Source of the DNA: a virus
Length of the DNA stretch: 14,522 nt
Strand: one strand, 5' to 3'
Virus genome (UHGV): UHGV-0155659
Part shown: piece after piece, positions 1,734 through 14,522 of the stretch
Position numbering within the stretch: position 1 is the first letter of the stretch
Layout of the letters: the number at the start of each line of letters is the position of its first letter
The notes under the pieces: model-generated
The model's input: the letters and a program-made list of their open reading frames with translations, nothing else
What the model was told of the DNA's origin: nothing
Databases searched by the model: none
Translations under genes and position numbers: made by a program

Positions 1734-2072
1734 ATGGCTAAATCAGCAGCAGAGCGCAAAGCCGCTCAGAGAGCCAGACAAGCTGCATCTGGTGTGCGTA
1801 AGCTGGAAATTGTGCTTGATGCTCAGGAAATTGAAATGCTGGAGCGTAACTGTGCCACGCGTCGCCCCGGGCGTGCGCCTTACGAATTTGGTGAGTATAT
1901 AGCGTTACTGATCCGCCAGGATGATGCACGCGTGCGCGGGCGTATAAAATCGATCAGCAGAAAACGTTGCGGTAAGTGCGGCGGGAGAGTTCCAGTTAAT
2001 TCATGCCCGTGTAATGGTGACTCGCAATGCTGGGTGACTAAAGGCTGGCATGAAACGAAATTAATAGTGTGA
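1734..2072 (+). CDS. basic, Cys-rich small protein; candidate DNA-binding regulator
   Basis: ATG at 1734 (the ORF track starts at TTG 1731). Lys/Arg-rich N-terminus (ERKAAQRARQAASGVRK) and a C-terminal Cys cluster (CGKCGG...CPCNGDSQC) resembling a zinc ribbon. It is the last gene before the terminator and late operon. The regulator role is inference only. Confidence 0.55.
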   Translation: MAKSAAERKAAQRARQAASGVRKLEIVLDAQEIEMLERNCATRRPGRAPYEFGEYIALLIRQDDARVRGRIKSISRKRCGKCGGRVPVNSCPCNGDSQCWVTKGWHETKLIV

Positions 2073-2080
2073 CATGTCAC
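2069..2080. promoter_or_regulatory. 12-bp perfect palindrome GTGACATGTCAC (candidate operator or protein-binding site)
   Basis: Read directly from the sequence. It overlaps the stop codon of the 1734-2072 gene at the start of the 118-bp intergenic region upstream of the terminase operon. Confidence 0.3.
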
Positions 2081-2121
2081 GAGTAGATTATGCATGATGA
2101 ATTTGATGGGTTTTGAATACT

Positions 2122-2147
2122 GCCGCCAACTATGGCGGCTTTATTTT
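2122..2147 (+). terminator. rho-independent terminator upstream of the late operon
   Basis: GC-rich hairpin GCCGCCA / ACTA loop / TGGCGGC followed directly by TTTATTTT. Lies between the regulator-like gene and the small terminase start. Confidence 0.6.
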
Positions 2148-2154
2148 GCATGGT

Positions 2155-2183
2155 ACTATTACCACAACGGTAACTATTACCAC
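2155..2183 (+). repeat. two direct copies of ACTATTACCAC spaced 18 bp apart, just upstream of terS
   Basis: Exact 11-bp direct repeat at 2155-2165 and 2173-2183. It sits between the terminator and the terS start codon and could be a protein-binding site (late activator or terminase recognition). Function is speculative. Confidence 0.3.
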
Positions 2184-2190
2184 GGTGGTT

Positions 2191-2787
2191 ATGATGCCTG
2201 CTGAACCTAAAACCTATAAACGCAAATCAACGCAATTTAAGCCACTAACAGCAATGCAGGAGGCTTATTGCCAGTCATACATCAAAACGCCTGAAAACCA
2301 GACTCAGGCAGCGATTAACGCAGGATTCTCCCCAAATACAGCGGCAGTTAAAGCCAGTGTCATGATGCGCGATGAACGCATTCAAAAACGGATTGCCGAG
2401 CTGATGGAGGAGCGCAACAAACGAATGCGCGTCAGTGCCGATTACGTTCTTATGCGCCTGGTGGAGATCGACCAGATGGATGTGATCGACATCCTCAACG
2501 ACGATGGGAGCCTTAAGCCAATCCGCGAGTGGCCGAAAATCTGGCGCACTACGCTTAGTGGCTTTGATCTGTCATCGACCATCATGAACATGAACGAGGA
2601 TTCGATAGAGACAATCCTCAAAAAAATTAAATGGCCTGACAAGGTGAAGAACCTTGAGCTGATTGGTAAGCATGTTGATGTCAACGCGTTCAAAGAACGT
2701 CTGGATGTTAATGTGAATGTGACAATTGCTGATCGCATAGCAGCAGCCAGGAAGCGACTCAAAGAACGTCAGGATGGTAATCAGTGA
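2191..2787 (+). CDS. terS: terminase small subunit (Terminase_2/HTH type)
   Basis: N-terminal segment TAMQEAYCQSYIKTPENQTQAAINAGFSPNTAAVKASVMMRDERIQKRIAEL is typical of the HTH-containing small terminase family. It sits immediately upstream of the large terminase with overlapping stop/start (GTGA). Start moved to ATG 2191 because the TTG-2113 ORF would include the terminator hairpin. Confidence 0.8.
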   Translation: MMPAEPKTYKRKSTQFKPLTAMQEAYCQSYIKTPENQTQAAINAGFSPNTAAVKASVMMRDERIQKRIAELMEERNKRMRVSADYVLMRLVEIDQMDVIDILNDDGSLKPIREWPKIWRTTLSGFDLSSTIMNMNEDSIETILKKIKWPDKVKNLELIGKHVDVNAFKERLDVNVNVTIADRIAAARKRLKERQDGNQ

Positions 2788-5246
2788 CAGATACAGCGTT
2801 ATCTCCTGAAGAGCAGTTGATCGAGGATATTGCAGGGTTCACTCACGATCCGCTTGGCTATGCCCTCTATGCGTTCCCGTGGGGGGAAGAGGGGACTGAA
2901 CTGGCACATGCCACCGGCCCACGTCAGTGGCAGGCTGATGCGTTCCGAGAGATACGTGATCACCTGCAGAATCCAGAGACGCGCTATCAGCCGCTTATGC
3001 TGGCACGCGCTTCTGGTCACGGTATTGGTAAATCCGCATTCATCTCAATGCTGATCAACTGGGGCATGTCCACTTGCGAGGATTGTAAGGTCGTGGTGAC
3101 CGCCAACACCGACAACCAGCTACGAACGAAGACCTGGCCGGAAATTATCAAGTGGTCGAACCTTGCTATCACGAAAGACTGGTTTGCCTGTACCGCTACC
3201 GCGATGTACAGCAATGATCCTGGGCACGACAAGCGGTGGCGAGCTGACGCAATCCCCTGGTCTGAGCACAACACTGAGGCATTCGCCGGACTACACAACG
3301 AGCGCAAACGCATCATCGTGGTATTCGATGAAGCGTCGAACATTGCGGATCTGGTGTGGGAAGTTGCTGAGGGTGCGCTTACGGACGAAGACACTGAGAT
3401 TATCTGGGTGGCGTTCGGAAACCCTACTCGTAACACCGGGCGTTTCCGCGAATGTTTCCGCAAATATAAACACCGCTGGAAAACTGCGCAGATTGACAGC
3501 CGGACGGTGGAAGGCACTAACAAACAGCAGTTGCAGAAATGGGTTGATGACTACGGGGAAGATAGCGACTTCGTTAAAATCCGTGTGCGCGGCATATTCC
3601 CTGATGCATCTGAATTGCAGTTTATCCCTACCGGTCTTACTGATGAGGCAATGAAACGGGTGGTAACCGCTGCGCAGGTGGCGCATGCTCCGGTGATAAT
3701 CGGTGTTGACCCGGCATATTCAGGCGTTGATGACGCGGTGATATACCTGCGGCAGGGGCTACACAGTAAGGTGCTGTGGACTGGCAACAAGACTACCGAC
3801 GATCTGATTATGGCGAAGCGTATCGCTGACTTTGAAGACCAGTATCAGGCTGACGCAGTGTTCATCGACTTCGGTTACGGAACCGGTTTGAAGTCAATCG
3901 GTGATGGCTGGGGACGTACATGGCAACTTGTTCCGTTCGGCGGTGCGTCCACTGACCCGCAGATGCTCAACAAGCGTGGGGAGATGTTCAACTCATGCAA
4001 GACATGGCTGAGGCTGGGCGGGATGCTGGATGACCAGGAAACAGCGGACGACCTGTCGGCGGCAGAGTATAAAGTTCGAGTGGACGGTAAAATCGTTATC
4101 GAACCGAAGGAAGATATCAAGGAGCGGCTTGGGCGTTCTCCTGGTAAAGGCGATGCGCTACTGCTGACGTTTGCTTTCCCTGTGTCAAAGCGTCTGCGAA
4201 TTCCCGGGTACCCGAACATTGACCGCGATACATCGAAGCTGGATAGCAAGAACAAGCCATTCAAATCGGTTTATTACGAGGTTGGTGGCGATAACGACAA
4301 GTTGTTGCGTGAGTCCGGATTCGATGAGTTTCCAATTATGGCTCCGCGCTGGGAAGTTAACGGCGAAGATGTTTATGGATCATCATGCCCGGGTATGCTG
4401 GCGCTTGGACCTGTTAAGGCATTGCAGCTTCTCCAGAAGCGCAAGTCGCAGTTGATTGATAAAGCCACCAATCCGCCGATGGTTGCTCCTACTTCCCTCA
4501 AGAATCAGCGCGCCTCCCTTCTTCCTGGCGACATCACGTATATCGATCAGATTACTGGTCAGGATGGCTTCAGGCCTGCTTATCTGGTTAACCCCAGTAC
4601 AGCAGATTTGGTGGCAGATATTCAGGACACTCGTCAAATCATTAACAGCGCCTACTTTGTCGATCTGTTCATGATGTTGCAGAACATCAATACCCGCTCG
4701 ATGCCTGTTGAAGCGGTGATCGAAATGAAAGAAGAAAAACTTCTGATGTTGGGGCCGGTTCTGGAGCGTCTGAACGACGAATGTCTTAATCCTCTCATTG
4801 ACCGTGCTTTCTCGATGATGGTGCGTAAAAACATGCTGCCTCCACCGCCAGATGTGATGGAAGGTATGCCACTGAAGGTCGAATACATTTCCGTCATGGC
4901 TCAGGCACGGAAGTCTATCGGCCTGTCCAGTCTGGCGTCTACGGTCAACTTCATTGGTCAACTTGCGCAAGCGAAACCAGAAGCTCTCGACAAACTCAAC
5001 GTTGATCAGGCGATCGATGCATTCGCTGATATGTCCGGAGTGTCTCCAACCGTCATTGTTCCGCAGGAACAGGTTGAGCATGCTCGCCAGCAACGGGCAC
5101 AGCAACAACAGCAGCAACAAATGATGGCGATGGGGATGGCGGCGGCACAGGGTGCCAAGACGCTAAGCGAAGCTAAAACTTCGGATCCGAGTGTTTTGTC
5201 TGCTATGGCGAATGCAGTTAGTGGTCAGGGTGGGCAATCACAATGA
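2784..5246 (+). CDS. large terminase (ATPase + nuclease) fused in frame to a T7 gp8-like portal C-terminal region
   Basis: The N-terminal ~470 aa carry a Walker A (ASGHGIGKS), a Walker B (IIVVFDEAS) and RNaseH-like nuclease motifs (VIIGVDPAYSGVDD; GKGDALLLTFAF), resembling T7 gp19-type TerL. The C-terminal ~350 aa align by eye with the C-terminal two-thirds of the T7 gp8 portal, including the Gln/Met-rich tail QQQQQQQMMAMGMAAAQGA. No stop codon separates the two parts. AGGATGG RBS precedes the GTG start. Confidence 0.8.
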   Translation: MTDTALSPEEQLIEDIAGFTHDPLGYALYAFPWGEEGTELAHATGPRQWQADAFREIRDHLQNPETRYQPLMLARASGHGIGKSAFISMLINWGMSTCEDCKVVVTANTDNQLRTKTWPEIIKWSNLAITKDWFACTATAMYSNDPGHDKRWRADAIPWSEHNTEAFAGLHNERKRIIVVFDEASNIADLVWEVAEGALTDEDTEIIWVAFGNPTRNTGRFRECFRKYKHRWKTAQIDSRTVEGTNKQQLQKWVDDYGEDSDFVKIRVRGIFPDASELQFIPTGLTDEAMKRVVTAAQVAHAPVIIGVDPAYSGVDDAVIYLRQGLHSKVLWTGNKTTDDLIMAKRIADFEDQYQADAVFIDFGYGTGLKSIGDGWGRTWQLVPFGGASTDPQMLNKRGEMFNSCKTWLRLGGMLDDQETADDLSAAEYKVRVDGKIVIEPKEDIKERLGRSPGKGDALLLTFAFPVSKRLRIPGYPNIDRDTSKLDSKNKPFKSVYYEVGGDNDKLLRESGFDEFPIMAPRWEVNGEDVYGSSCPGMLALGPVKALQLLQKRKSQLIDKATNPPMVAPTSLKNQRASLLPGDITYIDQITGQDGFRPAYLVNPSTADLVADIQDTRQIINSAYFVDLFMMLQNINTRSMPVEAVIEMKEEKLLMLGPVLERLNDECLNPLIDRAFSMMVRKNMLPPPPDVMEGMPLKVEYISVMAQARKSIGLSSLASTVNFIGQLAQAKPEALDKLNVDQAIDAFADMSGVSPTVIVPQEQVEHARQQRAQQQQQQQMMAMGMAAAQGAKTLSEAKTSDPSVLSAMANAVSGQGGQSQ

Positions 5247-5539
5247 CAGATTACGAAGACGATCAACTGAAAGAAGAAAACGCCAGTAAGCAACGTGACA
5301 TGGCACAGCGTGAAATTGATGACATTCGCTTTGTCATGAGCAGTGAACAGGGGCGTCGCGTTGTCTGGTCTGTGCTGGAGAAAGGCCGGGTGTTTTCCGC
5401 TATCTCACCGATGGACGCTATGGCAATGGCATTTAATGAGGGGCAACGCAATCTGGCGCTGGAACTGTTTCAGCGCGTTATGGCGCATTGCCCTGAACAG
5501 TATTTGAAGATGGCCAAAGAGGCCAGTGAACAGGAGTGA
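5243..5539 (+). CDS. small acidic protein between portal and scaffold (unknown function, probable head-assembly role)
   Basis: 98-aa ORF coupled on both sides (ATGA overlap at 5243-5246; stop 5537-5539 three bases before the scaffold ATG). No recognisable motif. Confidence 0.55.
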   Translation: MTDYEDDQLKEENASKQRDMAQREIDDIRFVMSSEQGRRVVWSVLEKGRVFSAISPMDAMAMAFNEGQRNLALELFQRVMAHCPEQYLKMAKEASEQE

Positions 5540-5541
5540 TC

Positions 5542-6237
5542 ATGAATTTATTTGAGCGTTTGCTGTATCGCCGTCTTTGCAATGAGCAACCAGTCGATGG
5601 TGGAGCAGCTCCGGCTGCGTCAGAACCGTCAGCGCCTGCAGGTGATACCCCTGCTCCAGTTGGTGATCCATCACAACAGGAAGGTGATAAGCCACAACCT
5701 GTTGCTGATGGCGATAAACCTGCTGATGACAAAAAGCCTGAAAACGATAAGCAGGATGAAAAAAAGGGCGGCGATAAACCAGAGGGTGCGCCTGAGAAGT
5801 ACGAGTTTCAGGCTGCCGAAGGCGTAGATCTGGATACAGAAGCGTTGAAGGAATTCGAGCCGGTGGCGCGAGAACTTAACCTGACCAACGAGCAAGCGCA
5901 AAAGCTGGTTGATGCTTATCCGAAGATTCTGGCAGGTGTTCAGCAGCGCCAGGCAGAAGCCTGGCAGAAAACAACCGAGCAGTGGGCTGCGGATGTAAAA
6001 GCTGACAAAGAAATCGGTGGCGACAAGTTGATTTCTAACCTTAGCGTCGCACAGCGTGCGCTTGACCAGTTCGGGACACCTGAACTCAAAGAATATCTGA
6101 ACACCACCGGGCTGGGTAATCACCCTGATCTGGTCAAAACGTTCGTGAAAATCGGAAAGGCGATGTCTGAAGATGGCATGGTCACCGGTGGTAATGAAGG
6201 CCAGCGTAGTGCGGCCGAAGTGCTCTATGGCAAATAA
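5542..6237 (+). CDS. capsid scaffolding protein (putative)
   Basis: AGGAG RBS at 5532-5536 and ATG at 5542. Has a low-complexity acidic Pro/Ala/Asp/Lys-rich N-terminal half and lies between the portal and the major capsid gene, as the T7 gp9 scaffold does. Call is by position and composition. Confidence 0.6.
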   Translation: MNLFERLLYRRLCNEQPVDGGAAPAASEPSAPAGDTPAPVGDPSQQEGDKPQPVADGDKPADDKKPENDKQDEKKGGDKPEGAPEKYEFQAAEGVDLDTEALKEFEPVARELNLTNEQAQKLVDAYPKILAGVQQRQAEAWQKTTEQWAADVKADKEIGGDKLISNLSVAQRALDQFGTPELKEYLNTTGLGNHPDLVKTFVKIGKAMSEDGMVTGGNEGQRSAAEVLYGK

Positions 6238-6245
6238 GAGAGGAA

Positions 6246-7238
6246 ATGACAATGGCTGTTAAAGGCTTAACTGCGCTAACGCTGGCTGACTGGGGTAAGC
6301 GCGTCGATCCAAACGGGAAAGTCGATAAGATTATCGAGCTTCTCGGTCAAACTAACCCGATCCTTCAGGATATGCCTTTTGTCGAAGGGAACCTTCCTAC
6401 CGGACACCGAACCACCATTCGTTCTGGTTTACCTTCAGCTACCTGGCGTTTGCTGAACTATGGCGTACAGCCAAGCAAATCAACCACAGTGCAGGTAACC
6501 GATTCCGTTGGCATGCTGGAAACCTATGCTGAAGTCGATAAGTCACTGGCTGATCTGAACGGCAACACCGCCGAATTCCGCCTGTCTGAAGACCGCGCAT
6601 TTATTGAAGCGATGAATCAGCAGATGGCGCAGACGCTGTTTTATGGTGATTCCAGCGTTAACCCTCAGCAGTTTATGGGACTGTCCTCCCGCTATTCCAG
6701 CCTGTCTGCGGGTAATGCTCAGAACATCATTGATGCTGGTGGCACGGGTACAGATAACACCTCAATCTGGTTAGTGGTGTGGGGCGAAAACACCGTGCAT
6801 GGCATCTTCCCGAAAGGGCAGAAGGCTGGCATCCAGATGGAAGATAAAGGCCAGGTGACACTGGAAGATGCTAATGGCGGCAAGTACGAAGGCTATCGCA
6901 CCCATTACAAATGGGATAACGGACTTGCTCTGCGTGACTGGCGTTATGTTGTTCGCATTGCAAACATCGATGTCAGCAATCTTTCAGAACCTTCCTCTGC
7001 CGCAAATATTGCGAAGTTGATGGTTAAAGCACTGCATCGAATTCCAAACCGTGGCATGGGTCGCCCGGTGTTCTACATGAACCGCACTGTAGGCCAGGCT
7101 CTTGATCTGCAATCTCTGGAGAAAACATCTCTGGCGATCAGCGTAAAAGAGACAGAAGGCGAGTGGTGGACGTCATTCCGTGGTGTACCAATCCGTGAAA
7201 CTGATGCGCTTCTGGAAACAGAAGCCCGCGTGGTGTAA
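6246..7238 (+). CDS. major capsid protein
   Basis: 330-aa ORF directly after the scaffold gene, followed by a stem-loop. Size and position fit an HK97-fold major capsid protein in a portal-scaffold-capsid arrangement. The start could alternatively be ATG 6252. Confidence 0.75.
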   Translation: MTMAVKGLTALTLADWGKRVDPNGKVDKIIELLGQTNPILQDMPFVEGNLPTGHRTTIRSGLPSATWRLLNYGVQPSKSTTVQVTDSVGMLETYAEVDKSLADLNGNTAEFRLSEDRAFIEAMNQQMAQTLFYGDSSVNPQQFMGLSSRYSSLSAGNAQNIIDAGGTGTDNTSIWLVVWGENTVHGIFPKGQKAGIQMEDKGQVTLEDANGGKYEGYRTHYKWDNGLALRDWRYVVRIANIDVSNLSEPSSAANIAKLMVKALHRIPNRGMGRPVFYMNRTVGQALDLQSLEKTSLAISVKETEGEWWTSFRGVPIRETDALLETEARVV

Positions 7239-7254
7239 CGCCTGTTATTAACCT

Positions 7255-7274
7255 GTGGGTCGTAACAGACCCAC
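7255..7274 (+). other. stem-loop between the major capsid and next gene (possible RNA processing/stability element)
   Basis: 7-bp stem GTGGGTC / GACCCAC with a 6-nt loop, not followed by a U-tract, so not a classical intrinsic terminator. Confidence 0.3.
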
Positions 7275-7289
7275 TAATGGAGAAAGAAG

Positions 7290-7727
7290 ATGATCACCGA
7301 CAAACTGTTGATGTTCTCCGAAGCTCAGGCGGTTACGAATACCGCGGCTTCTACTGACGTAATCGATCTCGGTCCAATTGACGGAAAACGTCGTGATATC
7401 GGCGTGGGTTACCCGCTTGAGTTTTGGGCGCTGGTTAACACAGCCGCCGCAGCAAGCGGTGATGCAACTGTAAACATCCAGTTGCAGACGAGTGAGGATA
7501 ACAGCTCATGGACCACTATTTATGATAGTGGTGCACTGGCAAAGACCGCCCTGACAGCAGGTAAACGAGTTGTTTCTGCAAAGGTGCCTGCCGGTGTTCA
7601 GCGATATCTGCGTGTTAACTACTCCGTCGCAACTGGCCCGCTAACGGCTGGCGAATTCACTGCTGGTATCAGTCTTGATGTTGATGCCAATACGCCGTAT
7701 CCGATCCGCTCAAAAGTAACTGGTTAA
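7290..7727 (+). CDS. small beta-rich head-associated protein, possibly a capsid decoration/cement protein
   Basis: 145-aa ORF with GGAG RBS at 7279-7282. The N-terminus LLMFSEAQAVTNTAASTDVIDLG resembles, from memory, cement/decoration proteins of the Bbp16-like type. Located right after the capsid gene. Assignment tentative. Confidence 0.5.
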   Translation: MITDKLLMFSEAQAVTNTAASTDVIDLGPIDGKRRDIGVGYPLEFWALVNTAAAASGDATVNIQLQTSEDNSSWTTIYDSGALAKTALTAGKRVVSAKVPAGVQRYLRVNYSVATGPLTAGEFTAGISLDVDANTPYPIRSKVTG

Positions 7728-7737
7728 GGTGATATCG

Positions 7738-8073
7738 ATGTCAGGTGAGAAACCAAGATACCGCGTTCTGCGCCTCTCTCATATCCATAACACACTGTGG
7801 CCGGAGGGGGCAGAAATCGAATACGAAGGTGAGCCTGGTAGCGCACTGGAACCTGTTAACGATGCAGCCAGACAGGCAAAAGCAAAAGTTGCAGGAAAGG
7901 TGTCAATGGCAGCAACCAGCACCAAAATCATCAACGATGTGTCAGATGATGGTGAACTGGATAAGCTCCGTGAAGAGTACGAATTGCTCTTTAACGAGAA
8001 GCCACACCATAACGCCAAAGCTGAAACGCTCCGCGAGAAGATCGCAGATAAGCGTAAAGAACTGGGCGTGTAA
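7738..8073 (+). CDS. hypothetical structural-module protein (111 aa)
   Basis: ATG at 7738 preceded by AAGGTGA; the ORF track starts at GTG 7729. Followed by an intrinsic terminator. Function unknown. Confidence 0.6.
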   Translation: MSGEKPRYRVLRLSHIHNTLWPEGAEIEYEGEPGSALEPVNDAARQAKAKVAGKVSMAATSTKIINDVSDDGELDKLREEYELLFNEKPHHNAKAETLREKIADKRKELGV

Positions 8074-8089
8074 GCCTCGCGGATCAGAC

Positions 8090-8111
8090 AAGGGGCTTCG
8101 GCCCCTTTATT
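8090..8111 (+). terminator. rho-independent terminator after the capsid gene cluster
   Basis: Hairpin AGGGGC / TTCG tetraloop / GCCCCT followed by TTATT. Its position after the head genes is analogous to the T7 T-phi terminator after gene 10. Confidence 0.6.
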
Positions 8112-8123
8112 GCAGGAGTGTAT

Positions 8124-8447
8124 ATGGAACTCGTAAACCTCAAAACCGGCACTGACAGCTACCAGGATGAGAGCGGAGAAACCAGAACTCGCGATGAATA
8201 CCCGTGGGGGCTGTGCATCACTCTTAATAACGACACATTGAATAAGCTGAAGGCGCAACCTCAGGGCGTCGGAACAGAAGTGATGATAACTGCAAAGGCT
8301 GTTATTCGAGGCCTGTCTGCCAGAGAAACTGACGATGGTGTTAATCGCAGCGCCGATCTGCAGATCACTGATATGGCGATCGCTCCTGTTTCCGGGGATG
8401 TAGAAAAATCAGCGGCTGAAACCCTGTACGGCAATGGGGGTGAGTAA
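8124..8447 (+). CDS. hypothetical virion-module protein (107 aa)
   Basis: AGGAG RBS at 8114-8118 and ATG at 8124. Stop overlaps the start of the next gene (TAATG). Function unknown. Confidence 0.6.
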   Translation: MELVNLKTGTDSYQDESGETRTRDEYPWGLCITLNNDTLNKLKAQPQGVGTEVMITAKAVIRGLSARETDDGVNRSADLQITDMAIAPVSGDVEKSAAETLYGNGGE

Positions 8448-9052
8448 TGGCCTCTGTAGTAGAGATCTGCAATCGTGCGCTGTCCAATATTGGCAACAGC
8501 CGCAGCATTAACAGCCTGACGGAAGCCAGCAAGGAAGCGGGGGAATGTTCGCTGCACTTTGAGGCCTGCCGTGATGCTGTGCTTTCTGATTTTGACTGGA
8601 ACTTTGCTACCAAACGCGTGGCGCTTGCAAATACGAGCAATCCACCGCCTGACTGGGAATATGCGTATCAGTACCCGTCCGATTGTCTGCGCATTACTGA
8701 AATTATGCTTCCTGGTGTACGCAATCCAACAGCAGCAATGCGCGTTCAGTACGAAGTTGGTGCAGACACCAACGGAACAGGAAAGTTGATCTACACAGAC
8801 CAGCCGCAGGCATGGCTCAAGTATGTCTCTCGCGTTTCAGATGTGAACATGTTTGATGCCATTTTTATGGAGGCGTTGGCCTGGCGTCTTGCGGCAGCTA
8901 TTAACATGGCGCTGACTGGGAATGCAGACCTCGGTACGTTTTCCCTCAATATGTACAATCGCGTGATTCTTAGTGCTGGCTCGCATAGCCAGAATGAATC
9001 ACAGGAACCACAGCCACCGGTTGACGAGTTTACCATTGCGAGGTTGTCCTGA
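8447..9052 (+). CDS. tail tubular protein A-like (T7 gp11-like adaptor)
   Basis: 201 aa, similar in size to T7 gp11, with N-terminal pattern ALSNIG...INSL...W.F and gene order directly before the gp12-like gene. Similarity judged by eye, not by alignment. Confidence 0.65.
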   Translation: MASVVEICNRALSNIGNSRSINSLTEASKEAGECSLHFEACRDAVLSDFDWNFATKRVALANTSNPPPDWEYAYQYPSDCLRITEIMLPGVRNPTAAMRVQYEVGADTNGTGKLIYTDQPQAWLKYVSRVSDVNMFDAIFMEALAWRLAAAINMALTGNADLGTFSLNMYNRVILSAGSHSQNESQEPQPPVDEFTIARLS

Positions 9053-11523
9053 TGGCTATCAGTTGGATCCAGCCCAGTTTTGCCGGTGGTGAGATTGGAC
9101 CGTCGTTGTACGGTCGTATCGACATGGCGAAGTACCAGGTGGCATTGCGCAAGTGCGATAACTTTATCGTGCGGCAGTATGGCGGCGTTGAGAATCGACC
9201 TGGTACGCGTTTTGTCGGTGCCGCCAAATACCCAAATCGGAAATGCCGCCTGATCCCGTTCCAGTTCTCGACGGTTCAGACTTATGCTCTGGAGTTCGGA
9301 CACCAGTACATGCGCGTTATCAAAGATGGTGCGTTGGTGCTGAACAGCAGCAATGTTATTTATGAAATTGCCACGCCATATACTGAAGCCGATCTGTTCC
9401 GAATTAAATTCACGCAAAGCGCAGACGTGCTTACGCTGGTTCATCCGGCATACCCGCCGAAAGAGTTGCGCCGCTATGCGCATGACAACTGGCAACTGGT
9501 TGATGTGGTAACGAAGAACGGGCCATTTGAAGATATCAATATTGACGAGTCAGTGACGGTTTATGCCAGCGCCAGCACCGGGACAATTACGTTAACGGCA
9601 AGCGCCTCTATTTTTGGCGCGGAGCAGGTAGGCAAATTGTTCTATCTGGAACAGCCTGCAGTGGATTCTGTGCCGGTATGGGAAACCAGTAAGAGTACGT
9701 CGATTGGCGATATTCGCCGTGCAGACAGTAACTACTATCGCGCCGTTACAGCAGGCAAAACAGGCACTTTGCGCCCTTCGCATACAGAAGGCACATCATG
9801 GGATGGCTGGGGCGGATCCGGTGATGATGATACCGGCATTGAGTGGGAGTATCTGCACAGTGGTTTTGGCATTGCCCGTATCTCTGCTGCAAATGGAACT
9901 ACTGCAACTGCCGAGGTGATTTCCTATATCCCTTCGCAGGTAGTTGGCGAGGATAATGCCAGCTATAAATGGGCTAAATATGCCTGGAACAGTATTAACG
10001 GTTATCCTGGCACTGTTGTTTATTATCAACAACGTCTTTACTTCGCCGCATCGACTGCGTTCCCTCAGACTATCTGGGCCAGCCGTACTGGGGATTATAA
10101 GGATTTTGGCAAAAGCAATCCTACGCAGGATGACGACAGAATTATCTACACCTATGCCGGGCGTCAGGTTAATGAGATCCGCCACCTGATTGATGTTGGT
10201 TCGCTGGTGGCGCTGACTTCTGGAGGTGAGTACGTCATCACCGGCGACCAGAACAAAGTATTAACCCCATCATCATTTGCATTCAGCTCTCAGGGATCAA
10301 ATGGCTCGAGCAATGTCCCACCAATTGCCGTGGCGAATATTGCTCTGTTCGTCCAGGAGAAAGGCAGTGTTGTCCGTGATCTGGCCTACTCATTCGATGT
10401 TGACGGCTATCAGGGGAACGACCTGACCATCCTTGCCAATCATCTTTTTCAGAAGCACAGCATTGTTGACTGGTGCTTCTCTATTGTCCCTTACTCCAGC
10501 GCCTTCTGCATTCGTGATGACGGTAAATTACTGGTGATGACCTATTTGCGTGATCAGCAGGTTTTTGCATGGGCACCACAATCCAGTACCGGAAAATATG
10601 AAAGCACATGCAGTATCAGCGAAGGCAATGAAGATGCGGTGTATTTCGTCGTTAACCGAACCGTTAACGGGCAAACAGTGAGATACATCGAGCGGCTGTC
10701 CAGCCGTTTATTTACCAGCGATGAAGATGCTTTCTTTGTTGATTCTGGCCTTAGCTATGATGGAAGAAATACGTCTGACAGAACGATGACCATCACTGGT
10801 GGTTCTGGCGAATGGGATTATCGCGCGGAATATACAATCAGTGTTTCTGGTGGTGCGTACTTCACCAGTAGTGATGTCGGCGCGCAACTACAGTTCCCTT
10901 ATGCCGGAACTGATCCTGATACTGGCGATGAAGTGTCAAAAGAATTACGTTGCGACATTATTTCTGTAACCAGCAATACCGCTGTAGTGGTTCGTGCCAA
11001 CAGGAACGTCCCGCCATCCCTCAGGAATGCGGCCACCACGAACTGGCAGATGGCGCGCCGGACATTTGGAGGCCTGTCTCATCTTGAAGGCCAGACCGTA
11101 AACATTCTCTCTGATGCGAACGTGGAACCACAGAAAGTGGTTTCCGGAGGTGCCGTCACACTGGAATCTCCGGGGGCTGTAGTGCACATCGGCCTGCCAA
11201 TAACTGCTGAATTCGAAACACTGGATATCAACATTAACGGACAGGAAACGCTGCTGGACAAAAAACAGGTGATACCCTCCGTTACTCTGGTTGTGAATGC
11301 CAGTCGCGGCATCTGGGCGACTACGCCCGGCGGTAAATGGTACGAATATCCACAGCGTGAATTCGAGTTCTACGATGATCCTGTTGATGATGCTACCGGA
11401 AAAGTAGAAGTGAAACTGGACAGTAACTGGGGCAAAAACGGACGTGTAAAAATCCGTCAGCTTGACCCGTTGCCGCTGTCTGTTCTTGCCGTTATTCCTC
11501 GCCTTACTGTTGGGGGATTCTGA
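9052..11523 (+). CDS. tail tubular protein B-like (T7 gp12-like nozzle)
   Basis: 823 aa, close to the size of T7 gp12. N-terminal SFAGGEIGPSLYGRIDMAKYQ...VENRPGTRFV resembles the gp12 N-terminus NLKGGISQQPDILRYPDQ...LQKRPPLVFL. Flanked by gp11-like and gp13/gp14-like genes. Confidence 0.7.
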   Translation: MAISWIQPSFAGGEIGPSLYGRIDMAKYQVALRKCDNFIVRQYGGVENRPGTRFVGAAKYPNRKCRLIPFQFSTVQTYALEFGHQYMRVIKDGALVLNSSNVIYEIATPYTEADLFRIKFTQSADVLTLVHPAYPPKELRRYAHDNWQLVDVVTKNGPFEDINIDESVTVYASASTGTITLTASASIFGAEQVGKLFYLEQPAVDSVPVWETSKSTSIGDIRRADSNYYRAVTAGKTGTLRPSHTEGTSWDGWGGSGDDDTGIEWEYLHSGFGIARISAANGTTATAEVISYIPSQVVGEDNASYKWAKYAWNSINGYPGTVVYYQQRLYFAASTAFPQTIWASRTGDYKDFGKSNPTQDDDRIIYTYAGRQVNEIRHLIDVGSLVALTSGGEYVITGDQNKVLTPSSFAFSSQGSNGSSNVPPIAVANIALFVQEKGSVVRDLAYSFDVDGYQGNDLTILANHLFQKHSIVDWCFSIVPYSSAFCIRDDGKLLVMTYLRDQQVFAWAPQSSTGKYESTCSISEGNEDAVYFVVNRTVNGQTVRYIERLSSRLFTSDEDAFFVDSGLSYDGRNTSDRTMTITGGSGEWDYRAEYTISVSGGAYFTSSDVGAQLQFPYAGTDPDTGDEVSKELRCDIISVTSNTAVVVRANRNVPPSLRNAATTNWQMARRTFGGLSHLEGQTVNILSDANVEPQKVVSGGAVTLESPGAVVHIGLPITAEFETLDININGQETLLDKKQVIPSVTLVVNASRGIWATTPGGKWYEYPQREFEFYDDPVDDATGKVEVKLDSNWGKNGRVKIRQLDPLPLSVLAVIPRLTVGGF

Positions 11524-11987
11524 TGATCGATGTTCGAATTATTCCCGCTACCGAAGAGCATCTTCAGATGATTTTGCCGGATGTTCGTCAGGCTGATATT
11601 GACGAACTGTATGCGGTATCGCTGATGACTACCGAAGATGCGCTGCGTGTTGGTCTGCGCACTGCGACTATGGCCTGGTCAGGATTTGCGAACGGAGAAC
11701 TGGTAACCATGTTTGGCGTATCTCCGGCGTCAATGATCGGTGGCAATGGTACGCCCTGGCTGGTCGGAACCAGCCGTATCGAAAAATATCAGAAGACATT
11801 TCTTCGCCACTGCCGCCCTGTATTGCAGCAGATGCTGGCAGTTTATCCGCGCCTGGAAAACTATGTCGACGAGCGAAACCATGTTGCCAAAGCATGGCTG
11901 CACTGGCTTGGATTCAGGCTTGAAGAAGCCGCGCCTTATGGTGCTCTTGGTCTTAATTTCCACAGATTTCACATGGAGAGAAAATAA
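11523..11987 (+). CDS. internal virion protein A-like (gp13-like) small protein
   Basis: 154-aa ORF coupled on both sides (TGATG at 11521-11525; TAATG at 11985-11989). Assignment is by synteny between the gp12-like and gp14-like genes. Confidence 0.55.
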   Translation: MIDVRIIPATEEHLQMILPDVRQADIDELYAVSLMTTEDALRVGLRTATMAWSGFANGELVTMFGVSPASMIGGNGTPWLVGTSRIEKYQKTFLRHCRPVLQQMLAVYPRLENYVDERNHVAKAWLHWLGFRLEEAAPYGALGLNFHRFHMERK

Positions 11988-12532
11988 TGTGCGATCCGGT
12001 TATTGCTGGTGGCGCAATGCTCGCCATGAGTGGCATTCAGGCATACACCCAGTACCAACAGGGAAAGTATGCCTCGAAGGTTGCAGAAGCGAACGCAGAT
12101 ATAGCCACAGCTCAGGCAAATGATGCAATAAACAGAGGTAACGCTGAAGCTGAGCAACGGCGCAGAGAGACCCGACAGCGGCTTGGTACACAGGCGGCGA
12201 CAATGGGGGCTACCGGCGCTGATTTATCTACAGGTAACGCGCTGGATATATTTGGCGACACTGCCCAGTTTGGCGCTCTTGATTCTCTGACGACGGTGAA
12301 TAACGCGCAACGCGAGGCTTACGGTTATCAGGTTCAGGCTGCCAACTATAAAGCAGAAGCCAGTTCAGCCCGTAAACAGGGGAATGTGGGAGCAGCAACA
12401 ACATTGCTCACTGCGCCTCTGAAGGCATACGGTGCGTACCAGATGTTTGGTGGGACGTGGAGTCCGTTTACTCAAAGCACCCCTGCGCCAATCTGGGCAG
12501 CAGCAGGAACCAGATTACCCGGAGGATTATAA
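11987..12532 (+). CDS. internal virion protein B-like (T7 gp14-like)
   Basis: 181 aa beginning MCDPVIAGGAMLAMSGIQA, compared with T7 gp14 MCWAAAIPIAISGAQA as I recall it. Ala/Gln-rich composition and synteny support the call. Confidence 0.65.
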   Translation: MCDPVIAGGAMLAMSGIQAYTQYQQGKYASKVAEANADIATAQANDAINRGNAEAEQRRRETRQRLGTQAATMGATGADLSTGNALDIFGDTAQFGALDSLTTVNNAQREAYGYQVQAANYKAEASSARKQGNVGAATTLLTAPLKAYGAYQMFGGTWSPFTQSTPAPIWAAAGTRLPGGL

Positions 12533-14522
12533 TGCCAGTCGTACCAACAGTATCCGGCCGTCAGGTTCAGAGCCGTGGAGTTCAGTCAGCAGGCTTGCAG
12601 ACGTTTTCTCAGCCAGGTATTGGTGATGCTTTTGTTCGGGCAGGGACAGAGGCAATTGATGTTTTTGGTCAGGCAAAACAGCGTGCCAATATCGCTCTGG
12701 CTCAGGAGGCATCTCTTAACCTCAGTCAGATAAGCAGTGATCTGCTGAATAATCCTGAAACAGGATTGCTTAACCTGAAAGGGAAAAATGCTATTGGAAA
12801 AGGTCAGGAGTATACGCAGCAGTTTGATGCTCAGGCCGAACAACTGGCTATGTCGCTGCCGGATGAACAGGCTCGTAATGCTTTCATGCAGCAGGCGCAG
12901 CAGCAGCGCATTCAGTTCACTACGCAGGCAGGGCGGCACGAGATAGGGCAAATAAATGCCTACGAAGAAGGCCAGTTTCAGGCTACGCTGCTGAACAATG
13001 GTAAAAATGCCGCAGCATTGTATGGCGACAACGCCGCATATGTATTGGCTAATAAGCAAACTTTCCAGCAAATTGAGGATTACGGCATTGCACATGGCTG
13101 GAGTGACGAGCAAATCCAGGCCAAGAAAATCGAGTTTAAAGAGAAGGTTGCTGATGCCGCATTGTCCCAGTGGTCGGCAAACAATGCGACCGCATTCATC
13201 CAAAGTAATGGCGAGTTAAGTGATACTGCTGCTGGAGCTCGCCGTGCTGTAGCAGATAGTGACTCTTCCGAGCGTGCCCGTGGCATACGCAACAATAACC
13301 CAGGAAATCTCGAATACAGCAAAACTAATCCGTGGGTAGGCCAGACCGGTGATGATGGTCGATTTGCTAAATTCGAAACACCTGAACACGGGATTCGTGC
13401 ATTAGGGCGAAACCTGATGTCGTATCAGAGGCAGGGTATTGATACCGTCAGCGAGATAATTAATCGCTGGGCACCGCCTACTGATAAAAATGATACTATG
13501 TCGTATATCAAAGCAGTGTGCGAACAACTTGGCGTTTCTGCTGATGATCCTCTCGATGCATCTAATCCTGATACCCTGAAGGCGCTTTGTGCAGCCATTA
13601 TCCATCATGAGAACGGTAGCCAGCCATACAGTGATCAGCAGTTAACTGCTGGTGTCAGTGCAGCACTTGGTTTATCAACAATTCCAACCAACACCAAACG
13701 CTATACCGGTAATGCAGCATTCGATGCGGCATCTCCTGAGGCGCAGGCAAGTTTTATGCGACAGGCGGATCAACTGCGTCGGCAGCAGCAGGCTGAATAT
13801 AAAACGATGATTGACAGCCAGGTTCGCGATGCGACAGCTGCATATATGCGTGGCGTTGAATTTCCTAACCCACCTGGTGAGGATGATTTTATTGCAGCTT
13901 ATGGAGTCAGAGAAGGAAACCTGCGATATACCGAGTTTAAGAATACGCAGATCGCCGGACAGTATATAGGCTCTTTCCGCAACATGCCGACAAGCAGCAT
14001 TACAGCATATGTTGAGCAATTACGCCCGGATACTGGTGATACAGGGGAGGGCTATGCGGCACGCGCAGCTCTTTATGACAACGTTGTTTCGGCTGCAAAT
14101 CAGGTGATAAAGCAGCGGCAGTCGGATCCTGTGCAGTTCTCTCTTGCCTCCGGACAGGCAAAGCCTATCGACATGAGCAATAAGGATAACTTTGGACAGA
14201 GCGTTGCCTTGCGTGCCGCTCAGGTCAGTGACCTTGCTAAGTCATATGGCACTCCACTGACGTTCTTTTCCAAAGACGAGGCCAATCAGATCGGTGTTTT
14301 CTTTCGTGATGCTCCAGTTTCCCAACAGGCAGCATATCTCGATACCATCAGGCAGAGCACTGGTGGTGGGCAGGTGTATATGTCAGCACTACAGCAGATC
14401 AGTACCAACGCTCCATCTGCTGCCGTTGCAAAAACCTACCTGAATATCAGTGTGAAACAGAACGCTGCTGCACTGACACAGGCTAAGAACGTTACAATCA
14501 CCGCATTCGACGGACCGAACCC
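12532..14522 (+). CDS. large internal virion/ejection protein (gp15/gp16-like), 3'-truncated by the window end
   Basis: Open frame from ATG 12532 (GGAGGA RBS at 12521-12526, TAATG overlap) to the window edge, giving more than 663 codons with no stop. Gln/Ala-rich with a conserved-looking block RGIRNNNPGNLEY...GIDTVSEIINRWAP. Absent from the ORF track because it has no stop in the window. Confidence 0.75.
   Translation, partial: MPVVPTVSGRQVQSRGVQSAGLQTFSQPGIGDAFVRAGTEAIDVFGQAKQRANIALAQEASLNLSQISSDLLNNPETGLLNLKGKNAIGKGQEYTQQFDAQAEQLAMSLPDEQARNAFMQQAQQQRIQFTTQAGRHEIGQINAYEEGQFQATLLNNGKNAAALYGDNAAYVLANKQTFQQIEDYGIAHGWSDEQIQAKKIEFKEKVADAALSQWSANNATAFIQSNGELSDTAAGARRAVADSDSSERARGIRNNNPGNLEYSKTNPWVGQTGDDGRFAKFETPEHGIRALGRNLMSYQRQGIDTVSEIINRWAPPTDKNDTMSYIKAVCEQLGVSADDPLDASNPDTLKALCAAIIHHENGSQPYSDQQLTAGVSAALGLSTIPTNTKRYTGNAAFDAASPEAQASFMRQADQLRRQQQAEYKTMIDSQVRDATAAYMRGVEFPNPPGEDDFIAAYGVREGNLRYTEFKNTQIAGQYIGSFRNMPTSSITAYVEQLRPDTGDTGEGYAARAALYDNVVSAANQVIKQRQSDPVQFSLASGQAKPIDMSNKDNFGQSVALRAAQVSDLAKSYGTPLTFFSKDEANQIGVFFRDAPVSQQAAYLDTIRQSTGGGQVYMSALQQISTNAPSAAVAKTYLNISVKQNAAALTQAKNVTITAFDGPN

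Follow-up and report, generated by a model that had tools for sequence, protein, structure and literature searches.

A ribbon-helix-helix gene with a palindrome at its stop codon, an intrinsic terminator and a predicted Rep-repressed promoter at the early-late boundary of a Uetakevirus prophage

Here we analyse the boundary between early and late genes in a stretch of 14,522 nucleotides from the virus genome UHGV-0155659, hereafter the window. At 1734-2194 the early-right operon meets the late (packaging and structural) operon of a Uetakevirus prophage resembling epsilon15, phiV10 and TL-2011b. Our working model, which we hold as a whole with moderate confidence, places three modules head to tail: a gene for a small cysteine-rich protein together with a palindrome at its stop codon, an intrinsic terminator, and a late promoter repressed by the prophage repressor Rep. 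The elements, their conservation, the protein fold and the linkage of gene and palindrome are drawn from sequence and comparison; from these we infer that the protein binds the palindrome, that Rep binds two operators (O1 and O2), and where transcription starts. A preliminary description of the segment had listed the protein gene, the palindrome, the terminator and a pair of direct repeats, all of which are present where it placed them, and had interpreted them as a regulated entry into the late genes by activator or antiterminator logic. The entry point into the operon of the small terminase subunit gene, terS, stands; the activator or antiterminator is not needed, as Rep operators are predicted to lie over an extended -10 element instead.

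The window is 97-99 % identical to TL-2011b, PAS61 and phiV10. TL-2011b, the closest complete relative, matches it at 97.5-98.3 % over 1734-4189 and 4209-12578. In these relatives, a rightward early operon (ead/Ea22, DUF551 and others) ends at this point and terS-terL and the structural genes come directly next. The last gene of the early-right operon encodes a 112-residue protein of the family that includes epsilon15 gp49, phiV10 p55 and N15 gp46.

Two copies of the 11-mer ACTATTACCAC (2155-2165 and 2173-2183) precede terS. They had been described as 18 bp apart, which is correct from start to start, the gap between them being 7 bp. The 11-mer alone has no significance within the window, but both copies form the left halves of tandem 17-bp palindromes of the type ATTACC-N5-GGTAAT. 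With up to two mismatches this motif is found three times in the 14.5 kb against 0.39 expected (1/200 shuffles), and with at most one mismatch only as O1 and O2 (Table 1), of which O2 overlaps the terS ribosome-binding site GGTGG (2184-2188). The same consensus describes seven features of 16-17 bp annotated as 'protein_bind: repressor (lysogeny)' in the epsilon15 record (NC_004775.2), three of them flanking the repressor gene and one, at 12-27, just before terS. In TL-2011b, too, the operator motif flanks the repressor gene and stands ahead of further late units, and the repressor is homologous to the crystallised Rep of SPC32H (PDB 5D50, E 6.6e-42). Rep binds palindromic sites as a tetramer according to a passage of PMC9638917 that cites Kim 2016, and a tandem operator pair fits such a tetramer. 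Pairs with a spacing of 18-20 bp stand before terS in epsilon15 and in loci L012, L013, L015, L016, L018 and L019. Prophages with such a pair come from Citrobacter, Pseudocitrobacter, Klebsiella, Superficieibacter and Erwinia, and those of Samsonia, Rahnella and Advenella have one site at this place. On this comparison, the repeats are not activator sites but half-sites of prophage-repressor operators, to which Rep would bind at O1 and O2.

The extended -10 element TGgTACTAT runs into O1. The pattern TGnTAnnAT is kept in 19 out of 19 distinct terS-proximal contexts, where it ends in the first two bases of operator 1 (for example TGGTACTAT, TGTTACAAT, TGTTAGTAT, TGATAGTAT and TGTTATGAT). The TG and hexamer positions 1, 2, 5 and 6 are invariant, variation being confined to the n positions, and the pattern is retained even though an inserted gene replaces the upstream DNA in L012, L018 and L051. 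A sigma70 promoter with an extended -10 needs neither a -35 element nor an activator. Consensus scans find no -35/-10 pair between the terminator and terS, in line with the preliminary description, which saw no obvious canonical pair; the only matches, weak ones (8-9/12), overlap the palindrome and are not conserved, and a TTGCAT-17-GGTAAC candidate was dropped in favour of the conserved extended -10. Transcription of terS would start at about 2166. An operator overlaps the -10 of the leftward early promoter of epsilon15 (TTGACA-17-GATTAT) in the same register. The conserved TGnTAnnAT and the operators lying over it thus suggest that terS has its own promoter, which Rep would repress directly and for which no activator would be required.

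The first late gene, terS, matches Pfam Terminase_2 (E 1.4e-29) from residue 45 of its maximal open reading frame (ORF) onwards. The ATG at 2194 aligns with the epsilon15 start, and TL-2011b annotates an equivalent gene of 594 nt. Most likely the gene starts at this ATG and not at TTG 2113 of the maximal ORF, which makes the terminator and the repeats intergenic. The repressor-operator part of our model can already be read from the epsilon15 annotation; both the extended -10 promoter and the gene-palindrome module are new to the records and literature searched, the main epsilon15 and SPC32H papers aside.

On the early side of the boundary, the ORF from ATG 1734 to TGA 2070-2072 encodes a protein that is basic and rich in cysteine, as previously noted, with a length of 112 rather than 113 residues. 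Its cysteines at 78, 81, 91, 93 and 99 are spaced CxxC-N9-CxC-N5-C. The protein matches phrog_536 ('transcriptional regulator') with an E value of 4.6e-54; no Pfam or NCBIfam family exceeds its threshold, the YbfE-like 'LexA regulated protein' family of NCBIfam matching weakly (E 0.05). Its relatives form 724 close clusters from Enterobacterales prophages and a further 150 clusters (at 50 % identity) that reach down to about 30 % identity, and the phrog_536-type family is found in Enterobacterales phages of the podo-, sipho- and myovirus types, N15 and P2-like phages among them. A MAFFT alignment of 41 diverse members leaves R8, R13, C79, C82 and C99 (alignment numbering) invariant and yields the pattern CxxCG..LP..C....GD..C(W/F/Y). 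Most databases call the family 'hypothetical', and PHROGs and some RefSeq phage records give it no more than the label 'transcriptional regulator'. The pairing of the gene with the palindrome provides a concrete, testable handle on this family.

AlphaFold2 models the protein confidently (predicted local distance difference test, pLDDT, 90), with an Arg-rich helix (5-19), an extended segment (20-29), two helices (30-42 and 52-74), a Cys-rich loop region and a last helix (100-108). In this model the fold is a ribbon-helix-helix (RHH; beta-strand, helix, helix) with a C-terminal module of four cysteines (Cys4), which probably binds zinc. RHH profiles respond marginally: RHH_5 or RHH_1 match 3 of the 41 members at E 0.01-0.07, and the Pfam family RepB-RCR_reg matches 2. 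In a profile search against PDB sequences, the C-terminal half weakly matches the DksA/TraR-type zinc fingers of YbiI and TraR (E 0.036-0.074), a resemblance that we take as a lead only. A Foldseek search of the PDB with the model returned no significant match.

The 12-bp palindrome is perfect and overlaps the stop codon, as described before. It had been regarded as an element of the late operon, but comparison shows it instead to be a conserved partner of the RHH gene. Of 36 homologue contexts, 23 have an exact GTGAC-NN-GTCAC no more than 15 nt from the stop codon, where it mostly supplies the TGA itself, compared with a chance of about 2e-5 per locus. Three more of the 36 have an exact copy within 200 nt, and two have the same arms split by 19-28 nt. 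Stop-codon palindromes accompany N15 gp46 (34 % identity; GTGACTGGTCAC), gp13 of a P2-like Yersinia phage (GTGACGCGTCAC), the AH07 homologue (GTGACCTGTCAC), the homologues in phiKO2 and ZF40, and marine-metagenome relatives at 31-34 % identity (GTGACAGGTCAC). A full-text literature search for the palindrome sequence found nothing, the main epsilon15 and SPC32H papers lying outside its reach.

Further exact copies are dispersed in the same genomes (Table 1). About 0.04 palindromes are expected per genome, giving Poisson probabilities of 1e-5 to 7e-4 for epsilon15, N15, ZF40 and TL-2011b; the copies in phiKO2 were counted only. The central dinucleotide is uniform within each genome, TG in N15 and phiKO2 and AT in epsilon15, ZF40 and TL-2011b. 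A centre that is constant per genome and differs between phages of one host species (N15 and TL-2011b) speaks for a reader encoded by the phage and against a host factor. The RHH protein encoded next door, presumably a dimer, is the obvious candidate, and the palindrome is most likely its own operator. In N15 (L033) the sites GTGACTGGTCAC lie at 28550, 33237 and 39269, and in phiKO2 (L168) at 32783, 37663 and 43540, at the end of gp46/gp45, within the replicase gene and upstream of the antirepressor operon. We rejected a reading of the palindrome as a partition site, since the annotated SopB sites of these two phages differ in sequence (GTGCGACCACGGTCGCAC).

Table 1. Features of the boundary segment (window coordinates) and exact palindromes in related phages
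Feature	Position	Strand	Basis or remark
Gene for the 112-residue RHH + Cys4 protein	1734..2072	+	translation, phrog_536, AlphaFold2
Palindrome GTGACATGTCAC ('PAL'), proposed operator of the 112-residue protein	2069..2080	.	contains the TGA stop codon
Relic of a deleted 70-residue gene, last codons ..DEFDGF*	2087..2119	+	intact ORF in relatives
Intrinsic terminator closing the early-right operon	2122..2147	+	GCCGCCA-ACTA-TGGCGGC then TTTATTTT
Extended -10 element TGgTACTAT for terS (predicted)	2151..2159	+	TGnTAnnAT conserved in relatives
Rep operator O1 ATTACCACAACGGTAAC (predicted)	2158..2174	.	1 mismatch to ATTACC-N5-GGTAAT; covers about -9 to +8
Rep operator O2 ATTACCACGGTGGTTAT (predicted)	2176..2192	.	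1 mismatch; 18 bp after O1; covers about +10 to +26
terS (terminase small subunit), first late gene	2194..2787	+	Pfam Terminase_2
Palindromes in epsilon15, 3 exact	after gp49; between convergent terL and p50; gp18 stop codon		
Palindromes in N15, 3 exact	end of gp46; within repA; upstream of antirepressor operon		
Palindromes in phiKO2, 3 exact	positions syntenic with N15		
Palindromes in ZF40, 3 exact	after gp22; within gp08; within cII-like gp12		
Palindromes in TL-2011b, 2 exact	after regulator gene; after P22-like ant gene gp42		

The strong intrinsic terminator reported in the preliminary description is borne out by folding (-13.8 kcal/mol, z = -5.7, 0 of 200 shuffles as stable). Its stem (2122-2128/2133-2139) has 7 bp, 6 of them GC, and a loop of 4 nt, followed by the tail TTTATTTT up to 2147. 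Relatives keep a terminator at this place, formed either by the same hairpin or by non-homologous ones, such as AACCGCCGCTTGGCGGTT in Rahnella and Advenella and others in L017, L020 and L021. Judged by this comparison, the terminator is functionally conserved and ends the early-right operon. Between palindrome and terminator lie the last codons of a gene that is intact in L128, L092, L132 and L060, where a 70-residue ORF ending ..YDEFDG(L/F/S)* stands directly before the same terminator. The mini-ORF MHDEFDGF (2091-2117) was rejected as a gene, being the relic of this ORF; indels in other relatives break its frame of 8 codons.

Terminators and genes of the SOS response recur as neighbours of the palindrome. 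An intrinsic terminator is found within 70 nt in 65 of 155 distinct contexts; transcription meets the palindrome first in 47, the terminator first in 6, and the terminator is bidirectional in 12. LexA-box promoters of small genes lie 3' of the palindrome in L012, L018, L013, L020, L021 and the Yersinia phage. Three of these genomes carry an insert between palindrome and terS that has its own promoter and a perfect LexA box (L012 4350-4800, L018 4555-5000 and L013 4350-4740); the inserted gene is UmuD-like in L012 and L018 and a different one in L013. As no terminator follows the insert in L012 and L018, SOS-induced transcripts would run onto the Rep operators and into terS. The antirepressor operon that one palindrome of N15 and phiKO2 just precedes is reportedly SOS-regulated. 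The third epsilon15 copy lies between the late operon and the convergent LexA-box gene gp19, which we take to be of the SPC32H Ant type.

Several observations weigh against parts of our interpretation. The adjacent palindrome is missing in 13 of the 36 homologue contexts. The predicted DNA-facing residues of the RHH strand vary across the family and the GTGAC half-site does not, so the invariant R8 and R13 of the N-terminal helix may read it, or something else may. In viral contigs the 14-mer occurs 128 times, behind the gene in 41 cases and behind terL in 10; many of the other 77 copies fall inside unrelated genes, where they encode, for example, RDMS or CDMS. These look like chance matches multiplied by redundancy in the database, and we drew no conclusion from them. 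The order of palindrome and terminator is suggestive only, because many contexts are related and both elements follow stop codons. On the late side, the repressor sites annotated for epsilon15 may have been predicted themselves. Lastly, a deletion between terL and the portal gene in the window, described below, means that the boundary may be a relic or non-functional in this host.

Some further copies of the palindrome were seen in other settings. A one-mismatch copy, GTGACATGGCAC, lies at 5295-5306 of the window within a small gene (5243-5539). In the viral contigs L112, L064, L150, L093 and L083 the palindrome stands amid dense arrays of GTGAC / GTCACG-like half-sites within long ORFs, resembling iteron or multi-site binding regions. 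In the viral contigs L062, L052, L057, L114 and L164 the 12-mer encodes the N-terminal M-R-D-M-S-Q of a protein, a start that is presumably like that of the 933W/H-19B Q antiterminator; this case may be a coding coincidence amplified by database redundancy.

The place of the RHH gene could also be understood in another way, in which its product would be the late switch itself, an activator or Q-like antiterminator that binds the palindrome, modifies the early RNA polymerase and takes it through 2122-2147 into terS. The gene is last in the early-right operon, which is the position of Q in lambda. The palindrome is upstream of the terminator here and in 47 of 53 one-sided cases elsewhere, the distance from site to termination is about 30-75 nt, and the zinc finger that the C-terminal half weakly resembles (E 0.04-0.07) is one that binds RNA polymerase. 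We nevertheless consider this explanation unlikely. Given the conserved extended -10 under the Rep operators, read-through is not required and antiterminator logic at the palindrome-terminator pair is not needed. The epsilon15 copy after terL precedes a terminator only for the leftward p50, where read-through would produce antisense terL RNA. Neither Ogr_Delta nor the antiterminator-Q families of Pfam match the protein, for which a comparison with Ogr/Delta- and Q-type regulators had been suggested, and no recognisable Q-like protein is present, as already observed.

The genomic contexts of the family members bear on the same question. The homologue lies between a methylase gene and ninB in ZF40, in a nin-like region in N15 and phiKO2, after gpA (as gp13) in the P2-like Yersinia phage, and ahead of xis-int in Chlobot and AH07; other prophages have unrelated genes downstream, and many contexts have nothing late there. 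N15, phiKO2 and ZF40 encode a separate Q-like protein besides the homologue. The Yersinia phage has, besides gp13, a 72-residue regulator, gp51, in the ogr position of P2 after gpD; a role of gp13 as late activator by position, suggested by its 186-B-like place after gpA, was rejected in view of this second gene. Because homologues coexist with Q or with an ogr-position gene, the RHH-Cys4 protein would not be a dedicated late regulator, and by gene order the family is not tied to terS or to late genes.

Rather than by the RHH-Cys4 protein, the palindrome might be read by a host factor with MatP/matS-like or CRP-like half-sites, act as an RNA element, or serve as a recombination linker of phage modules. 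Its half-sites equal those of matS, GTGAC-RNY-GTCAC (PMC6907758). It coincides exactly with mosaic junctions, because the upstream sequence is identical in many contigs and the downstream sequence different, and the variable strand residues of the family would suit a reader other than the protein. We judge these alternatives, taken together, quite improbable. The spacer is 2 bp against the 3 bp of matS, and the central dinucleotide is lineage-specific within one host species. The RNA reading was rejected: the arms are invariant without covariation, the hairpin that the RNA would form (-2.9 kcal/mol, z -0.1) is not more stable than those of shuffled sequences, and all Rfam families stay below their thresholds (27.8 bits for rseX, where 50 are required). 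A pure linker, finally, is not expected two to three times per genome beside terminators and within repA.

It is highly improbable that the repeats are pac- or cosB-like recognition sites of the small terminase, with the palindrome as cleavage site: they do lie immediately upstream of terS like lambda cosB, and the phiV10 record opens at window 2073, within the palindrome, but that record merely opens after the last stop codon, which disposes of a cos/pac reading of its start, the epsilon15, SPN1S and Tyrion records open elsewhere, phages whose terminases are unrelated (the cos phage N15 and P2-like phages) also have the palindrome behind the RHH gene, and TerS-binding repeats are rejected because the 17-bp motif is a repressor operator found genome-wide, at seven or more other places in epsilon15 and TL-2011b that cluster around the repressor gene.

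In the three-module model that we prefer, the last early gene would encode a dimeric RHH-Cys4 protein with its own 12-bp operator at the stop codon. The gene-palindrome pair would be a portable unit in many temperate Enterobacterales phages, with two to three sites per genome, most of which lie where a transcription unit ends, shortly before an intrinsic terminator, or else in front of an SOS-controlled promoter. The strong terminator would then stop early transcription, and terS would be transcribed from TGgTACTAT, with two tandem Rep operators spanning about -9 to +26. In the lysogen, a Rep tetramer would close the terS promoter; upon inactivation of Rep by an antirepressor, the late operon would fire without a dedicated activator. 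Late expression of epsilon15-like phages would thus be wired unlike that of lambda or P2, lacking a Q or Ogr step, and a repressor placed directly on the extended -10 of the packaging operon would make late timing a direct read-out of antirepressor action.

As to what the bound protein does, we would guess first at a role at the boundary, in which it strengthens termination or stops read-through where operons end; it might instead act in the opposite way and favour passage through the terminator. A bolder proposition, which we regard as doubtful, is that RHH-Cys4 and GTGAC-NN-GTCAC form an undescribed and widespread boundary system of temperate phages, in which a DNA-tethered factor at the ends of transcription units sets whether RNA polymerase stops or reads through at the adjacent intrinsic terminators. 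If true, such a system would insulate or couple early, late and SOS-controlled antirepressor units, and could interfere with host MatP/matS because it shares the half-sites. The gene-palindrome pair also hints that elements at operon boundaries, next to terminators and genes under SOS control, may form a class.

Other observations concern the prophage around the boundary. Homology to TL-2011b begins exactly at 1734, the start codon of the RHH gene, and the window diverges again past 12578; the genes upstream of 1734 (Ead/Ea22, DUF551 and DUF4222) belong to other, Stx-phage-like modules. With these limits at 1734 and 12578, mosaic junctions border the gene-palindrome unit on either side. Within the 35 bp that precede the RHH gene there is a short direct repeat, CGGTAAAGGT / CGATAAAGGT (1701-1725, 15-bp spacing), which overlaps the ribosome-binding region of the gene and is probably due to chance.

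Downstream of terS, an ORF of 820 residues (2784-5246) joins the N-terminal ~470 residues of terL in frame to a C-terminal portion of the portal protein, at about 4190-4208. Relative to TL-2011b, 2.16 kb is absent (TL-2011b 13622-15786, where terL ends, three small genes lie and the portal gene begins), and the junction was found in 0 of 5,426 complete E. coli genomes. The fusion should leave the prophage unable to package DNA, or else it is an assembly artefact; the prophage in the window is probably defective. In L015, L024 and L025 (Citrobacter braakii, Samsonia and Rahnella) some 0.9-1 kb of extra DNA interrupts the match to terL near residue 84; candidates are an intron, an intein, a homing-endonuclease insertion and a mobile element.

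Among known systems, lambda Q/qut-tR' and the RinA-type late activators encoded directly upstream of terS share the gene order, in which the early region closes with a regulator gene and a DNA site, a terminator and late genes follow. The 112-residue protein shows no homology to these regulators, its site lies outside the promoter, its family coexists with real Q proteins and the late operon appears to have its own repressor-controlled promoter; neither Phage_antitermQ nor Antiterm matches the protein, and the palindrome is not part of a conserved late promoter. The Ogr/Delta proteins (70-90 residues, CxxC-N22-CxxxxC) differ in cysteine spacing, and Pfam Ogr_Delta matches neither the protein at E<=1 nor any of the 41 members at E<=0.1. 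The C4 zinc fingers of DksA/TraR proteins (TraR and YbiI) provide the best, though weak, profile matches to the C-terminal half, with CxxCG..(L/I)P...G...C in common; the spacing CxxC-N17-CxxC that defines the class is absent, and Pfam zf-dskA_traR matches neither the protein nor the family. MatP/matS of E. coli is a resemblance and not a membership. The palindrome is a 12-mer with a 2-bp centre in all lineages, against the 13-bp matS motif GTGACRNYGTCAC (PMC6907758), and the protein has a Cys4 module in place of the four-helix bundle and coiled coil of MatP; an hhalign comparison of the family profile with E. coli MatP gave a probability of 0.2 % over 13 columns.

Two groups of repressors offer further parallels. 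Like Arc and Mnt of P22 and other RHH repressors of the CopG/MetJ type, the 112-residue protein is a small phage protein with a predicted beta-alpha-alpha fold that is expected to bind a short palindrome as a dimer, and it is often located beside antirepressor or SOS-controlled genes. It differs from them in its additional Arg-rich N-terminal helix and C-terminal Cys4 module, and in a proposed operator that sits at the 3' end of its own gene rather than in a promoter, with dispersed copies at operon ends. The late side of the boundary, in turn, corresponds to the Rep operators of epsilon15 and SPC32H (PDB 5D50). The repressor gene lies outside the window, both predicted sites carry one mismatch, and the extended -10 under the operators is not annotated in the records examined; the 17-bp ATTACC-N5-GGTAAT is the same, it precedes terS as does the epsilon15 site at 12-27, and its tandem arrangement suits a tetrameric repressor.

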